NCBI GenBank assembly: GCA_964596525.1
Contig: CAZQUL010000001.1
Location: forward strand, 1,276,312-1,340,311
DNA from: an uncultured Gammaproteobacteria bacterium
GTDB taxonomy: Bacteria; Patescibacteriota; Patescibacteriia; Magasanikbacterales; GWA2-37-8
Length of the DNA stretch: 64,000 nt
Reading direction: 5' to 3'
The position numbers were made by a program, and so were the translations under genes. Below are positions 2,287-54,408 of the stretch, piece after piece. Below the pieces are notes generated by a model. That model was not told where the DNA came from and searched no databases. It worked only from the letters and a program-made list of their open reading frames with translations. Within the stretch, counting starts at the first letter, position 1; each line of letters starts with the position of its first letter.

Positions 2287-3762
2287 CTAGGGCTCGAGAT
2301 TGATTTCAACATACTGTTCTCCGGCGAGCGAGAATTTCTGGCGGTAGCGGTTGTCGCCATGTTCGTTCGGTGCTTCGCCAGGCCGGGCCGCTAGTACCCT
2401 TTTAGCAAAGGCCATATCAAGCGTCAACGCATCGACCTTCATACCCAGTTCTTTCTGCGCGAGAAGATAATACGAACCGCGTTTTATCTGACTAACAACC
2501 TCGGGTGCAAGGCGCACCACAAAACTTACCTCACCGGCGCTTCCCGGTGGAATGATGATGAGCCCACCGAACCATTGACGACCATACTCAACCCCTTGTT
2601 CAGGCGTGGTTGTAGCAACACCAACGCTGTTTTTGCGGATACCGACAGCCTTAACGAGCGTTGTGCCGAGCGGAAGGTAAAGACGCGTATACGATTGATA
2701 CTGGCTCGTTTTCCAGTCACGTCCACCCTGGTGGGCATAGCGCATGGTGATGGTAGCGGTGTACCCACTGCCCACGGGCGCAATGGCATAAGAGAGGTCG
2801 CGTTTAATGACTGCATCGGTTTTAAGCGCGCCCAAGTTGGCATCGACCCACATAAGGTAATCGCCCTGGAACGATGAGCGGAATTCGCCCGCCCACTGCT
2901 TGGCACGGACAATCGCCTGCTCCTGCGCATCAGTGAGGTAAAGAGCGATGGAGCGGTTTTCAAACATGCGCTCGGCGAGTTTGAGATACGCTGCCCAGTC
3001 GGTGATGAGAGTCGAGGTAAGCTTAGCAGACATGGCGCGTACAAGTTCGGCAAGGATCTGTTTGCGATCGCGACGGGAAAGTCCTTTGTCTTCAAACGCT
3101 TGTTCTACTTCGTATTGGAGTTTTTCAATAACGTTTTCTTTGGTGAATCGCTCACCCGACACTTCGATCGGACCGGTGATACCAAGCATTTCTTCGAGCA
3201 CCGTAGCCGTAATGCCGATAACGCCGTCGATGTTAGCGGCCGCAACACCACGTTGTTTGGTGTAGAGTTCGAGCGCTTTTTCAGAGGAGCTGGCAAAGTC
3301 CGGCGACCAATTGGCATCGCGGAAATACCAGCGGTTTACGCCTAAGTAGGTTTTAAGCGGGGCGGGCGGAACAGACGGAAAATCTTCGGGATAACCGGAA
3401 TAATCGAGGATTTCGGTGCCTTCGACTTTCAAAATATGTGGCACACCATTCTTGAGTTCAACCGTAGCGTAGGAACCGATGAAGCCGCCACCAGGCCGGA
3501 GCTCGGTATTATTGAGAAACAAAAAGAGGTATGTACGTGGCTCGTAAAATCCGAGGAGGTGTTTGACGAATTCCTGCCGATCGGCCGTAGATGTTGCCAC
3601 CGCATCCAGGATATTCGTGCGATCACCAATGGTTTTTACGAGCTGGTCGGCAACAAGGCGCTGCAAGACACCCGAGCGATACGCCCAGTAGGTGCCACCA
3701 ACCACTGTAACACCAAGCGCAAGCAACGTTATTCCGCCGTAGAGAAGGATTTTTTTAAACAT
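2287..3762 (-). CDS. N-terminally membrane-anchored DUF4012-like protein
   Basis: 491 aa with a single N-terminal TM helix (ILLYGGITLLALGVTVVGG) then a large extracytoplasmic domain; architecture typical of DUF4012 proteins common in CPR genomes. Assignment from memory of the family, not a search. Confidence 0.5.
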   Translation of the reverse strand: MFKKILLYGGITLLALGVTVVGGTYWAYRSGVLQRLVADQLVKTIGDRTNILDAVATSTADRQEFVKHLLGFYEPRTYLFLFLNNTELRPGGGFIGSYATVELKNGVPHILKVEGTEILDYSGYPEDFPSVPPAPLKTYLGVNRWYFRDANWSPDFASSSEKALELYTKQRGVAAANIDGVIGITATVLEEMLGITGPIEVSGERFTKENVIEKLQYEVEQAFEDKGLSRRDRKQILAELVRAMSAKLTSTLITDWAAYLKLAERMFENRSIALYLTDAQEQAIVRAKQWAGEFRSSFQGDYLMWVDANLGALKTDAVIKRDLSYAIAPVGSGYTATITMRYAHQGGRDWKTSQYQSYTRLYLPLGTTLVKAVGIRKNSVGVATTTPEQGVEYGRQWFGGLIIIPPGSAGEVSFVVRLAPEVVSQIKRGSYYLLAQKELGMKVDALTLDMAFAKRVLAARPGEAPNEHGDNRYRQKFSLAGEQYVEINLEP

Positions 3763-29945: not shown

Positions 29946-30620
29946 CTACTTCTTCTCCCCTTTCCACTCTGTCGTATACCCCGGATTCTCGCTCGGGCGA
30001 AGCTTGTTCGGATATTCGATATCCGTCTTTACATCGTGCGAGAGCTTCTTGAAGAACTTAAATACGTCGTAGGGATTCGCGATGTTGGCAAGCGTGTGTG
30101 GTGTGGCGGTAAAATTACCGCGCCGATCGTGTTCGCCGACACCTTGGGCGAAGAACGCGATACTGCCGGACCCGCCGCCGATGGTTTTGTCCCAAAACCC
30201 GACCTGCACCTCTGTACTCGCAATCTGATCAAAATCAACATAGCTGAAATCACGGCCGATAATACCGCTTTGGATGATGATGCGCTTACCGGTGATGGCG
30301 TAGTAGAGATTTTTATAGCCGAGAATTTTGAGGAGTGGAATGCCGAACAGCAAGAAGAGACCGATGAGTACGAACGGCAGCAAGAAAAGATTAACTGAGG
30401 CCGTCACCATACCTTCGCCCGCGACGTTCAAGAACAATCCAGCCGATAAGAACGGCGACAAAAACAAAAACCACACGATGCCAAAGAGAAATGAAGGGAG
30501 CGAACCGGTGAGTACGTAGGGCCATAATGCCGGTTTTCCTTCCCAGAGAACCTGTTCGTTAGGGTCGAGGATGCGGTCGATTTCGCGCATAGAGAAAAAA
30601 TTAAAGTCTCTTAAACGCAT
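29946..30620 (-). CDS. membrane protein with bacterial PH (bPH_2/DUF304-like) domain
   Basis: Start set at MRLRDFNFFSMREIDRILDPNEQVLWEGKP...; the longer ORF start at 30707 lies inside the tRNA gene. Two TM helices then a PH-like domain (YAITGKRIIIQSGIIGRDFSYVDFDQI). Confidence 0.5.
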   Translation of the reverse strand: MRLRDFNFFSMREIDRILDPNEQVLWEGKPALWPYVLTGSLPSFLFGIVWFLFLSPFLSAGLFLNVAGEGMVTASVNLFLLPFVLIGLFLLFGIPLLKILGYKNLYYAITGKRIIIQSGIIGRDFSYVDFDQIASTEVQVGFWDKTIGGGSGSIAFFAQGVGEHDRRGNFTATPHTLANIANPYDVFKFFKKLSHDVKTDIEYPNKLRPSENPGYTTEWKGEKK

Positions 30621-30651
30621 ACATCGGTTGTCTTGAAAGATCAACCGATGT
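30621..30651 (-). other. 10-bp perfect hairpin between tRNA-Leu and the downstream start codon
   Basis: ACATCGGTTG-tcttgaaagat-CAACCGATGT. Confidence 0.5.
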
Positions 30652-30660
30652 ATGGATATG

Positions 30661-30758: not shown

Positions 30759-30861
30759 TGTCATTGCGAGCGGCAGCGAAGCAATCCCCTTGATTCCAGA
30801 GCTCTTTCTGACATCGAAGGGATTGCTTCGTCAGTCGTCTAACTCCTTCCTCGCAATGACA
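30759..30861. repeat. about 100-bp palindromic (MITE-like) element, copy 1
   Basis: Outer arms TGTCATTGCGAG / CTCGCAATGACA and inner arms GAAGCAATCCC / GGGATTGCTTC; shares its termini with the element at 52759-52857. Confidence 0.55.
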
Positions 30862-33842: not shown

Positions 33843-33984
33843 AGAGGTAAAGTATGGTGTTCATGTAAAGAATTTCTTTGATTAAAGCATATTTTAAGGA
33901 AAAACGCTAGACACGCACTTATCATTGCGAGCCGGCAGGCAGACTTGCGATGATGGGTATATAAAACATCCATCTCCTTCATCT

Positions 33985-44732: not shown

Positions 44733-44815
44733 GAGAGACCTTAGACCTGAGACCCTAGACCTTAGGATACTTGTAATTCTAAGGTCTGAGGTCTAATATC
44801 TAATATCTTAAGGAT

Positions 44816-51026: not shown

Positions 51027-52730
51027 TTACATTTCTGCTACGGTCTCGATCGTGAGAACGTCCAAGGCCGTGACAAGTACCGTTCTAACCGCTCCGGCGA
51101 GGGTAAGCCGGGCTTTCGAAAGCGCTTTCTCAGAACCGAGAATGGGGCACTGGGCATACCAGTCATTGAAGGCTTGGGCGAGATCGAAGCAGTATTTAGC
51201 GACGACCGAGGGGTTGTAAGCAAGAAAGGCCTTCTCGAGGATATCCGGAAAACTCGAAAGCATGAGGGCAAGCCTCTTTTCGGTCGGGGCAGAGAGCAAA
51301 TCAAGGTTAGAATTTTCCAGCGAAGACGTTTCGGACTGAGCTTTGCGGAAGATACTATTGATGCGCGCGACGGAATATAAGATGTAAGGCGCACTCATCC
51401 CTTCGAAACTGACCGCCTCGTCGAGATTGAACACGATATTCTTGGCAGCTTCGTGTTTTTGCATGTTGTATTTGAGAACGGCCAACGTTAGCTTGAGGGT
51501 CGTGCTCTGGATTTTTTCTTCCGGCCAGTCAGCATGACGGGCGGTCATTTCATGCTTGAGACGCTCAAAAACCTGATCTCGGAGATCCTCGTATAAAATG
51601 ACGGTGCCTGCGCGTGAGGACATCTTGCCTTCAGGGAGCATGACAAGGCCGTAGCTCACATGCGTCATTTTTTTGTTGAATCCGGCGAGCTCGAGGATTT
51701 TGAAGAGCTGCTTGAATTGGAAATTCTGCTCGAGTCCGGTGATACAGATGCTTTCGGTAATATCGTAACGCGCGAATTTTTCTTCGGCGAGCGCCAAATC
51801 GCTCGTGATATAAAGACCGGCACCGGTCGACTTGCGCAAGAGAACGGTATCCAACTTATAGGCGGAAAGATCCGCAATGATCGCCCCCCGCTCCCCGACC
51901 GTGGCGATGCCTTTAGCGAGAAGTTCGTCGACGACCTGCTGTCCGCGGTCCTTGAGATCGCTTTCAAAAAAAACCCTGGCATGCTCGATCGCGAGCTCGG
52001 CATTGAGGCGTTTGAATCCTTCCAAACTCCAGGCGCGGGTCTCTTCAAAGAGCGCAAAAACCGACGGATCGCGCGCTTCGAGTTTAAGTTGCAGATCATC
52101 CACCTCACCCTGACACTCCGGATGATCTTTGAGATAATTATTAGCTTCGGCGTACACCTGCCCGAGCCAGCGCTGTTTATTTTCGGGTGGTGTTTCGCCA
52201 CCATGGAATTTACGGAGTCCCCAGAGGCATTTGACCACGTGGGCGCCGAAATCGTTCAGATAGTTGACCGGCGTCACGCCGTAACCGGCCTTGGCGAACA
52301 GTTTGACAAGCGTATTGCCGATACAGACGTTGCGCAAATGGCCGATGTGGAATTCTTTGTGGGTATTATTCGACGGATACTCGATGAGAACGTTTGCCGG
52401 ATTCTCAAGGTGTTTTGATCCGAATCGTTCGCCGCTTTGAGCGATCTCGCCAAGCACGATCTGCGCTACTTTTCCGGCATTAAACGTGAAATTTAAAAAT
52501 GGGCCAGCAGATGAAACAGTCTCCACTAGACCGCCAATCAAGCCTTGCGCCGTACGAGCAAGTTCACTCGCAACCAGAGCGGGGTTTTTCCCCTGCTTCT
52601 TAGCCAGCTCAAAACAAGGAATAGCCACATCCCCCATCTCAGGATTGGGCGGCGTGGAACAGGGAGTGTCGGAAGGCAAGTTGAGAGCGGTAAGAAATTT
52701 CTTGAGTTCGTTATCGAGTACAGGAGACAT
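51027..52730 (-). CDS. argS: arginyl-tRNA synthetase
   Basis: 567 aa; class I HIGH motif (SNNTHKEFHIGHLRN), Add-1 N-terminal domain, DALR C-terminal domain. Confidence 0.9.
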   Translation of the reverse strand: MSPVLDNELKKFLTALNLPSDTPCSTPPNPEMGDVAIPCFELAKKQGKNPALVASELARTAQGLIGGLVETVSSAGPFLNFTFNAGKVAQIVLGEIAQSGERFGSKHLENPANVLIEYPSNNTHKEFHIGHLRNVCIGNTLVKLFAKAGYGVTPVNYLNDFGAHVVKCLWGLRKFHGGETPPENKQRWLGQVYAEANNYLKDHPECQGEVDDLQLKLEARDPSVFALFEETRAWSLEGFKRLNAELAIEHARVFFESDLKDRGQQVVDELLAKGIATVGERGAIIADLSAYKLDTVLLRKSTGAGLYITSDLALAEEKFARYDITESICITGLEQNFQFKQLFKILELAGFNKKMTHVSYGLVMLPEGKMSSRAGTVILYEDLRDQVFERLKHEMTARHADWPEEKIQSTTLKLTLAVLKYNMQKHEAAKNIVFNLDEAVSFEGMSAPYILYSVARINSIFRKAQSETSSLENSNLDLLSAPTEKRLALMLSSFPDILEKAFLAYNPSVVAKYCFDLAQAFNDWYAQCPILGSEKALSKARLTLAGAVRTVLVTALDVLTIETVAEM

Positions 52731-52758
52731 ATTTTAATATAATGTCTTTGCGAGGAGC

Positions 52759-52857
52759 GTAGCGACGAAGCCCGTCCGCCATGGCAGCAAGGCGTGCCGG
52801 GCGGGCTTCATCGCTCATTCTTCGCTCCTCGCAAAGACATATTTATTGACATGAACG
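52759..52857. repeat. about 100-bp palindromic (MITE-like) element, copy 2
   Basis: 18-bp perfect terminal inverted repeat ATGTCTTTGCGAGGAGCG / CGCTCCTCGCAAAGACAT with an imperfectly palindromic interior; termini match copy 1 (TGTCWTTGCGAG...CTCGCAAWGACA). Confidence 0.55.
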
Positions 52858-52895
52858 GAATGCTGTGAGACCGTACGGTACGAAAGCGAGGCAGC

Positions 52896-53204
52896 ATGAG
52901 TTCTTTACTCAACGCGATCGAGAGCCGATACCTTGACCGACGCGTCGGCGAGGAAACGGTGTTTGAAGATTATTCTCTTGTCAAGAGCGGCGATAAACTG
53001 GTAGTGGTTGTACATAGCTATAATGCCATTTCTGAAGCGGAATTCTGGGAATGGTACCAGATGAACGAGGCTCTTGGAAAACCGTGGCCACCCGTGGGCG
53101 CTGCGCGCGCCCAGGTTTATTTCAACGGCGTCTGCGAAGTTCCACATGCCGTCGAGAAGCTCTTGGAGCACGGGCAGCTCGTCGGCCGCTTTCCACCAGA
53201 GTAA
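52896..53204 (+). CDS. hypothetical protein
   Basis: 102 aa; no TM helices; no motif recognised. Confidence 0.4.
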   Translation: MSSLLNAIESRYLDRRVGEETVFEDYSLVKSGDKLVVVVHSYNAISEAEFWEWYQMNEALGKPWPPVGAARAQVYFNGVCEVPHAVEKLLEHGQLVGRFPPE

Positions 53205-53232
53205 CGTAACGAGTGCTCACCGAGCCCTCGTT

Positions 53233-54408
53233 TTATTGTATCCGCACGAAATGCCGACTCCCCTTTTGCACCACATCGCCCTTCGCCACTTTTTCATCGA
53301 TCAGCGAGACTTTGCGCTCACCGATTTTCACGCCGCCCTGGGCGATTACCTGGCGCGCTTCACTCTTACTCTTTACGAAGCCGGCTTCGAGGAGAACGGT
53401 GACGATGTCCGGGGCAGAAGGAGTGAGCAGGGCCATTTCATCGGGAACTTCTTTTTTAGAGAACGTTTTGACGAAGGATTCTTCCGCTTGAACCGCTGCT
53501 TTGGAAGAATGATACATTTTTACGAGCTCGAAGGCGAGCTTCATTTTGATATCGCGCGGGTTGGCGCCGCCCCGAAGCGCGCTTTCATAGTCTTTTACTT
53601 CATCAAGCGGTACGCGCGTAACGAGAGTAAAATATTTGATCACCAGATCATCGCGCAACGCCATCACCTTGCCGTACATGTCGGCAGGCTCGGCTGCAAG
53701 ATTGATGGTATTCCCCCAGCTCGAGCTCATCTTACGCCCATCAAGACCTTCGATAAGGGGACCCATGACGATGCTTTGCGACTCCTGGTTGTAACGCTCC
53801 TGGAGTTTACGTCCGGCGAGCAAATTGAAGCGCTGATCAGTGCCGCCGAGCTCAACATCGGCTTTGACGGCCACGGAATCATACCCTTGCATGATCGGAT
53901 AGAGAACTTCGCGCAGCGACACGCGCGTGCCCGCATCGAGACGGCGGCGGATATTATCGCGCGCGATGAACTCAGCCACCGAAAAACAATCTGCCTGTTC
54001 CCCGATTTCGCGGTAAGTCAATTTGTCGAGCCAGGTACTGTTATAATGGATTTCGGCTTTGTCGAGATCGATAATCTTGCCGGCCTGCTCAGTATAATGC
54101 CGCATGTTTTCTTCGATTGTTTGGCGCGTGAGCATGGGACGTTCACTGTCTTTATCGGACGTGTCGCCGATAACGCCCGTAAAATCGCCGACGATGAAAA
54201 CGACCTGGTGACCAAGCTCCTGAAAATCGCGCAGCTTAAGGAGCGGGATGGACCGGCCGAGGTGGATGTTCGGGCTCGTCGGATCAATGCCGAGTTTGAC
54301 GCGCACTTGTTTCTTGGCTTTGAGCTGGGCTTCGAGTTCGTCTCGGCCGATGATTTCTTCGACGCCACGGGTAAGAAGATCCGCCGAGTGGCGAGCGGAT
54401 GAGGGCAT
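53233..54408 (-). CDS. tyrS: tyrosyl-tRNA synthetase (with C-terminal S4 domain)
   Basis: 391 aa; HIGH-type GIDPTSPNIHLGR, KMSKS-type KMSSS, C-terminal S4-like SKSEARQVIAQGGVKIGERKV. Confidence 0.85.
   Translation of the reverse strand: MPSSARHSADLLTRGVEEIIGRDELEAQLKAKKQVRVKLGIDPTSPNIHLGRSIPLLKLRDFQELGHQVVFIVGDFTGVIGDTSDKDSERPMLTRQTIEENMRHYTEQAGKIIDLDKAEIHYNSTWLDKLTYREIGEQADCFSVAEFIARDNIRRRLDAGTRVSLREVLYPIMQGYDSVAVKADVELGGTDQRFNLLAGRKLQERYNQESQSIVMGPLIEGLDGRKMSSSWGNTINLAAEPADMYGKVMALRDDLVIKYFTLVTRVPLDEVKDYESALRGGANPRDIKMKLAFELVKMYHSSKAAVQAEESFVKTFSKKEVPDEMALLTPSAPDIVTVLLEAGFVKSKSEARQVIAQGGVKIGERKVSLIDEKVAKGDVVQKGSRHFVRIQ

Follow-up and report, generated by a model that had tools for sequence, protein, structure and literature searches.

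The palindrome that lies between the argS and tyrS genes of the present window, by which we mean the whole 64-kb stretch of DNA that was analysed, is probably a diverged copy of a widespread non-coding palindromic repeat resembling a REP doublet (REPIN-like), which would have spread as single-stranded DNA by means of an enzyme acting in trans and which sits within an insertion that splits the tyrS–argS pair. It is most likely a non-autonomous DNA-hairpin repeat. Its membership of a repeat family, of which it had been proposed as the second copy in the window, was borne out by a covariance model (R1) built from 78 elements, all of them from other organisms, which scored it at 47.2 bits on the plus strand and 42.2 bits on the minus strand (E value approximately 1e-10).

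Structure of the palindrome

The palindrome, termed copy 2 below, is a real element and not a product of chance. The initial annotation had assigned it to positions 52759–52857, but both ends had been stated 17 nt too high and the element actually occupies 52742–52840. The perfect 18-bp terminal inverted repeat that had been described was found at these limits, with arms that are fully complementary, and the interior, which had been given as roughly 63 nt and imperfectly palindromic, does measure 63 nt and contains a second pair of arms with 86% complementarity. The parts of the element are as follows.

52742–52840, no strand assigned: copy 2, the whole element of 99 nt, supported by its inverted repeats, fold z-score and covariance model R1
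52742–52759, plus strand: left terminal arm, perfect over 18 nt, ATGTCTTTGCGAGGAGCG, containing TGTC (head) and TTTGCGAG (core of the family)
52755–52765, plus strand: junction insert GAGCGTAGCGA, identical with the long-form consensus of the family
52761–52781, plus strand: left inner arm AGCGACGAAGCCCGTCCGCCA, standing where the family usually has CGAAGCAATCCAG
52795–52815, plus strand: right inner arm TGCCGGGCGGGCTTCATCGCT, with 86% complementarity to its left counterpart
52816–52822, plus strand: unpaired 7-nt bulge CATTCTT in the minimum-free-energy structure
52823–52840, plus strand: right terminal arm CGCTCCTCGCAAAGACAT, perfect complement of the left terminal arm

Both strands of copy 2 fold into one long hairpin, with free energies of −71.3 and −68 kcal/mol and z-scores of −11.2 and −10.9 respectively, and none of 200 shuffled sequences folded as well (RNA folding). 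The hairpin is asymmetric because of the 7-nt bulge, and T-rich runs follow it on both strands. Two long-form units in inverted arrangement make up copy 2; its junction insert, an 11-mer met four times in other organisms, contains a mini-hairpin GCGTAGC with a GNA loop at 52757–52763. Its inner arms (GAAGCCCGTCCG/CGGGCGGGCTTC, as against GAAGCAATCC/GGATTGCTTC in the family) were not found among the other 244 loci first compared, and the type is present in one metagenome element, L246, the head of which is a third compensated variant, GTCG...CGAC. In addition, copy 2 has TTTGC in place of ATTGC and is devoid of any unit-level pairing.

At position 52777, inside copy 2, Logan short-read contigs from two sequencing runs stop at the same base, one reaching it from the side of argS and two arriving from the opposite direction, and no 31-mer is repeated locally around this point. 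These contig ends could reflect a drop in coverage at the hairpin, other genomic copies or a polymorphism in the population, such as loop inversion.

An insertion between tyrS and argS

The genes and other features that surround copy 2 are listed below.

51027–52730, minus strand: argS, with Pfam domains tRNA-synt_1d, DALR_1 and Arg_tRNA_synt_N
52731–53232, no strand assigned: tyrS–argS spacer of 502 bp, a lineage-specific insertion compared with 2–8 bp in relatives
52896–53204, plus strand: open reading frame of 102 amino acids inside the insertion, with a weak coding signal and no credible homologue
53233–54408, minus strand: tyrS, with Pfam domain tRNA-synt_1b (E value 1.6e-70), upstream of argS on the same strand

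As argS is encoded on the minus strand, copy 2 lies upstream of its start codon and not downstream of the gene. The ATG is 11 nt from the element, and the alignment of the Arg_tRNA_synt_N domain begins at residue 8 of the predicted protein. The element had been said to fill the whole ‘argS downstream spacer’, whereas it stands at the 5′ end of argS in a gap of 502 bp; its location upstream of the gene at 52896 was correctly stated, the distance to that reading frame being 55 nt. In three relatives, whose ArgS proteins are 57–65% identical, tyrS and argS also lie on one strand with only 2–8 bp between them, and the family element is absent from all three tyrS–argS loci; the named relatives of ArgS are from the Magasanikbacteria and other Patescibacteria, which makes it probable that the window, part of a 1.34-Mb contig, belongs to a CPR bacterium. 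Given this difference in gap size, the spacer is a lineage-specific insertion into a tight junction, and copy 2 belongs to this 502-bp insertion that splits a closely abutting gene pair. The comparison with orthologous spacers in relatives, which had been proposed as a check, speaks for a repeat, with copy 2 as an insertion, and against a conserved regulatory hairpin.

It had also been suggested that the palindrome might double as a terminator. An intrinsic terminator of argS was rejected as a candidate, since it requires a hairpin and a U-run at the 3′ end of the gene and copy 2 sits at the 5′ end; the three relatives have no such sequence, and a promoter and terminator scan of the spacer detected neither a sigma-70-like promoter nor a canonical terminator at the element. 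A promoter-proximal or 5′-UTR effect of copy 2 on argS or on the putative 52896 reading frame is possible. The logic of the annotation is thereby corrected, in that the hairpin marks a lineage-specific insertion rather than an argS terminator. Because a tight tyrS–argS junction has been broken in a small genome, expression of argS must have been rewired: its transcription would now have to pass the hairpin or start right at the hairpin's border, and any effect on argS would be a by-product of the insertion, with no conserved regulatory design.

The 102-amino-acid reading frame within the insertion gave no Pfam match, and its codon score of 0.11, compared with a gene mean of 0.22, is atypical and borderline. 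A search of 1.84 billion representative proteins returned only the protein itself and two repetitive proteins, which we rejected as homologues as they matched via short repeated stretches. The 52896–53204 frame could be foreign DNA, a young gene or no gene at all.

A widespread family of palindromic repeats

The consensus of the family reads (C/T)GTC-ATTGCGAG-[insert]-CGAAGCAATCCAG-[loop of 13–67 nt]-CTGGATTGCTTCG-[insert]-CTCGCAAT-GAC(G/A). A search with the pattern TTGCGAG-N55-85-CTCGCAAWGAC retrieved at least 120 stretches in viral contigs of IMG/VR, where the copies adjoin tail, portal and capsid genes, and the T-variant GTCTTTGCGAG...CTCGCAAAGAC, a rarer form and the one that copy 2 has, was found in at least 119 stretches of species-representative genomes. 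True members from isolates include those of Legionella and Methylobacterium, and others come from further Proteobacteria, Bacteroidota, Chloroflexota, Nitrospirota, Omnitrophota, Deferribacteraceae and Neomarinimicrobiota, and, within the Patescibacteria, from Paceibacterota, Kaiserbacteria and others. The family spans at least eight bacterial phyla and phage contigs. It is also carried by 12 plasmid or megaplasmid records, in none of which it is annotated, and GenBank phages yielded only four partial matches. In total, approximately 260 doublets and approximately 150 unpaired ends were counted, and single units are common.

Searches of Rfam with copies 1 and 2 and nine loci of canonical copies, at gathering and permissive thresholds (E values up to 10), returned nothing relevant, be it a T-box, a riboswitch or an sRNA, and a literature search with the conserved strings and typical peptides found only PCR primers. 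Integron attC sites, dif/Xer sites and IS200/IS605 ends were rejected by inspection, as their defining motifs (RYYYAAC/GTTRRRY etc.) are absent.

The T-variant pattern also picked up a different repeat, built on GCGTCTTTGCGAG(TCC)TTTGCG motifs, which is not of the same family (loci L123, L124, L149, L167, L184, L202, L215, L223 and L239) and whose hosts include Sphingobacteriales, Pedobacter, Blastocatellia and Clostridia. In Legionella quateirensis (L135, 1770–2320) we observed a tandem array with a period of 176 bp and three full copies, in which a fourth copy has begun and is interrupted by an assembly gap. Beside this array are repeats of a sister family, GTCATCCTGAG/GTCATCCCGAG...AGGGATC, whose stem bases have changed together (ATCCT/AGGAT compared with ATTGC/GCAAT).

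Anatomy of the repeat unit

Each unit starts at the head GTC, runs through ATTGC-GAG, an insert and CGAA-GCAAT, and ends in the tail CC(A). In most units the base that precedes GTC is C or, less often, T: the viral set has 174 units with C and 115 with T, and the genome set 235 and 42, respectively. The canonical unit has a 5-bp stem of ATTGC and GCAAT, G/A-rich internal loops and a 2-bp GNA mini-hairpin. Among inserts of five nucleotides, 142 of 187 have the form C-GNA-G (N being A in 73, C in 42, G in 14 and T in 13), which gives the unit a core of GCGNAGC. Longer inserts follow the scheme GA-NN-loop-NN-GA, and the two NN dinucleotides are complementary in 36 of 37 distinct sequences, with eight pair combinations. 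As this mini-hairpin lies within a single arm, its covariation is no side effect of the arms copying each other. Pairs between the arms covary as well, for which concerted evolution of the inverted repeats, and not selection, could be responsible. With regard to the tails, the family consensus is GCAAT-CCAG, whereas copy 1 has CCC and copy 2 has the other inner arm (GCCCGTCC).

DNA mini-hairpins of the sequence d(GCGNAGC) with GNA loops have reportedly been described by Hirao, Yoshizawa and colleagues. The commonest core of the repeat unit is exactly GCGAAGC, GCGCAGC, GCGGAGC or GCGTAGC. The mini-hairpin is a structural motif and not a genetic element, and we infer its relevance to the family from this identity of sequence.

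Other copies in the window

The family is represented in the window at a low and irregular density, with two to three copies in 64 kb. Apart from copy 2, the following were found.

30759–30861, no strand assigned: copy 1, with canonical inner arms CGAAGCAATCC (R1 score 62 bits, E value 9e-15)
33918–33957, plus strand: possible relic or mini-palindrome, ATCATTGCGAG-12 nt-CTTGCGATGAT (R1 score 16.7 bits, E value about 0.02, weak)

On the minus strand, a DAGK-like gene ends 28 nt before copy 1 and a tRNA-Leu gene starts 14 nt after it; both window copies stand 11–14 nt upstream of the next minus-strand gene. The termini of copy 2 had been reported to match those of copy 1, and indeed the 12-nt terminal sequence TGTCWTTGCGAG occurs four times in the window, compared with 0.03 occurrences expected, as two inverted pairs that form the ends of the two copies; TGTC stands at both ends of both. 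Copies 1 and 2 are alike only in the parts conserved in the family and so give no sign of recent mobility in this genome. The sequence at 33918–33957, between a Mur ligase gene and the gene of a PLP enzyme, may be a relic of the family with its interior deleted or a ‘seed’ of it.

Two further hairpin-like sequences were noted in the window. A perfect 13-bp hairpin at 30618–30654 (CATACATCGGTTG...CAACCGATGTATG), directly 3′ of tRNA-Leu on the minus strand, is probably the terminator of that gene, and a 33-nt imperfect inverted repeat at 44736–44808, containing runs of TAGACCT/GAGACC-like heptamers, is unrelated to the family.

Mobility and spread

A unit that is inserted or deleted as a whole was seen at one phage site, where two contigs have the element and a related contig lacks it; the site falls exactly in the gap that separates a stop codon from the ribosome-binding site that follows. 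The median identity of loops is 0.71 within genomes, compared with 0.47 between them, which indicates proliferation within genomes. No direct repeats flank either copy in the window, and the flanks of 96 elements showed only a pyrimidine preference and no target duplication. One element, at 3140–3252 of L204, is read in frame in the RNase H domain of a 673-amino-acid UvrC (...HCEEQSDEAI...APRNDG...).

A classical MITE, i.e. a deletion derivative of an insertion sequence that is moved by a DDE transposase binding the 18-bp terminal inverted repeats, would share with copy 2 the perfect terminal repeat, the small size, the lack of coding capacity and the observed presence/absence polymorphism. 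We nevertheless regard this origin as improbable, since target-site duplications are missing both at the window copies and in the flank profile, single unpaired units are common and the interior is conserved and structured rather than arbitrary filler. In addition, no transposase gene with these termini was present in the approximately 1.1 Mb of viral loci screened, and clustering of the neighbouring genes at these loci yielded phage structural proteins only, with no recurring transposase.

We favour instead the reading of copy 2 as a REPIN-like doublet. In this family, two inverted units each begin with an unpaired (C/T)GTC head and continue with ATTGCGAG, an internal mini-hairpin that mostly has the form G-C-GNA-G-C, CGAAGCAAT and finally a tail resembling CCA. 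They face each other over a variable loop, which lets a single strand fold into one long hairpin. In the manner of REPs and REPINs, the element would spread as single-stranded DNA and leave no target duplication; the enzyme acting in trans would most plausibly be a Y1 HUH transposase (RAYT/IS200 type). Several findings stand against this explanation. A lone unit is predicted to fold weakly, and copy 2 has no pairing within its units. No mobilizing enzyme was identified in the 2.2 Mb of flanks or in the 64-kb window of the 1.34-Mb genome: tblastn with nine RAYT/TIRYT proteins gave no RAYT-like sequence in the window and a single match in the flanks, which is not flanked by units. The occurrence of the family in phage contigs, furthermore, contradicts a strictly vertical REPIN–RAYT picture.

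Two copies in one viral contig (L068, 4145–4227 and 11957–12039) have the same asymmetric stems and central loops that are reverse complements of each other at 15 of 19 bases, as compared by eye, which points to an inversion of the loop or a template switch inside the hairpin. Nested or stuttered copies were seen at metagenome loci (L247, L253, L257, L265 and L266) and viral loci (L012, L047, L048, L066, L069 and L109), where a complete element is enclosed by a fragment that has only the head or by an additional mini-palindrome GTCATTGCGAG...CTCGCAATGAC on the outside; these loci look as if new copies insert into existing hairpins.

A bolder proposal treats the GTCATTGCGAG family as one DNA-hairpin replicator whose stems are almost the same in phages, in Patescibacteria and across at least eight phyla, and which spreads horizontally, copied by an enzyme that is encoded elsewhere. 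We put this forward tentatively, as an idea that is rather doubtful at present. If it were true, the enzyme might come from phages or be a host nuclease, of the HUH or repair type, with broad conservation, the family would be a ‘universal’ REP-like element breaking the rule of lineage-specific REPIN–RAYT pairs, and the nested copies and inverted loops would point to self-targeted insertion into existing hairpins.

Possible roles of the hairpin

In an RNA-based explanation, copy 2 would act as a very stable hairpin in the 5′ UTR or between the cistrons, keeping tyrS read-through out of argS or helping to stabilize or process the transcript, or else it would terminate transcription in both directions between argS and the 52896 reading frame. 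The predicted RNA fold of −68 to −71 kcal/mol, the T-rich runs past the hairpin on both strands and the position of both window copies 11–14 nt ahead of a minus-strand gene would suit such a role, as would a weak orientation bias of doublets relative to transcription in other genomes (42:24, P=0.036) and, in the text of PMC3733652, the report that REPs lie mostly downstream of genes and are transcribed. Nevertheless, we consider it unlikely. The hairpin is missing at the same junction in the three relatives, the terminator scan left the element unflagged, there is no Rfam match even at an E value of 10, and a full terminator 11 nt ahead of an essential gene would do harm. Mismatches in the inner helix show no excess of the G-U type (G-T plus T-G 70, compared with A-C plus C-A 64), and single units are oriented without bias relative to their flanking genes (29 sense and 27 antisense), so that these tests and the Rfam searches provided no evidence of a strand-specific RNA role. 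Members of the family are also found in divergent spacers and within genes: 94 element contexts were unidirectional, 30 convergent and 18 divergent, roughly following the background of 67%, 16.5% and 16.6% obtained with crude gene calls. Proximity to tRNA genes (three of 261 elements) was no more than chance.

A second possibility is a DNA site of use to the host and retained for the working of its chromosome, e.g. a cruciform or a site bound by a nucleoid protein, gyrase or a repair protein. The conservation of sequence on both strands and across phyla and the strand symmetry would agree with this, and similar roles have been suggested for the REPs of E. coli according to the text of PMC3733652. 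Yet the low and irregular density in the window, the absence of the element at this locus in relatives and the wide variation of copy number between genomes make it very improbable, and the fact that each lineage has its own loop subfamily points to proliferation.

Comparison with known repeat systems

Among elements of known type, MITEs such as the Correia elements of Neisseria and Chunjie are similar in size, in having terminal inverted repeats and hairpin-forming transcripts and in inserting between the genes of operons. In contrast with these, the present family has no target duplication or related insertion sequence, possesses a conserved structured interior and includes single half-elements. 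The REPINs of Bertels and Rainey resemble the family as well, being composed of two inverted REP-like units with a short spacer that form a long hairpin, with a subfamily specific to each genome and no target duplication. However, no cognate RAYT was found in the window or in the 2.2 Mb of flanks, and the stems of the family stay conserved from phylum to phylum and do not co-evolve lineage by lineage. In addition, the REPIN–RAYT system is described as vertical and absent from mobile elements, whereas the family occurs in viral contigs and in the 12 plasmid records. The REPIN of Neisseria has been tied to a Group 2 RAYT (bioRxiv 10.1101/2021.07.10.451892), and its sequence appears to us to be of the CGTC-1 type; read in this way, it would make a Y1 HUH enzyme the most plausible mobilizer of the present family.

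The closest known elements are the CGTC-tagged REPs (Di Nocera, De Gregorio and Rocco 2013, BMC Genomics 14:522, PMC3733652), especially CGTC-3. Our comparison is with the text of that paper, and the repeats of some species listed there could belong to the same family. As described in that text, these REPs share with the family an unpaired CGTC/TGTC head, a stem beginning with AT and perhaps a CCA-like tail, occur mostly as inverted doublets that fold as one hairpin, often from unlike units, have no flanking transposase gene, and are mainly intergenic, with occasional in-frame copies in DNA-repair genes. An excess of REPs inside DNA-repair genes and copies read in frame are reported in the same text, to which the in-frame UvrC copy is a parallel. 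For CGTC-3, whose sequence we deduced as GTCATTGCCGGGCTTGACCCGGCAATCCA from the peptide VIAGLDPAIH in the text, the outer stem ATTGC...GCAAT agrees with that of the family, and GTCATTGC...GCAATCCA, likewise back-translated from the listed peptide, is common to both.

The differences lie mainly in the unit. According to the same text, CGTC-tagged REPs bear an unpaired tag, CGTC or also TGTC or CCTC, at one end of each unit and have a stem of 8–9 bp, the first two pairs being A-T, and a loop of 4–5 nt, whereas the family unit has a 5-bp stem, G/A-rich loops and a variable mini-hairpin and is predicted to be weak alone; by nearest-neighbour folding a lone unit hairpin reaches −2.7 kcal/mol (z about 0), compared with −10.9 kcal/mol (z −4.8) for a CGTC-3 unit. 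This difference in stem and loop makes the family a variant rather than a member of the CGTC-tagged REPs, from which copy 2 departs further with its TTTGC and other inner arm. CGTC-type REPs have been without a known transposase since 2013, and the nearly identical stems across phyla and phages, the GNA signature and a searchable consensus offer a handle on the missing enzyme via phylogenetic profiling. Recognition of the family would also clear the many spurious ‘hypothetical proteins’ to which the repeats give rise, for example those with the peptides ...HCEE.SDEAI... and ...APRNDG. The kind of element is ordinary (REP/REPIN-like), and what is moderately interesting is its presence in phages and CPR bacteria and its breadth, which exceeds the five phyla reported in the text on CGTC-tagged REPs and extends to Patescibacteria and phage contigs.
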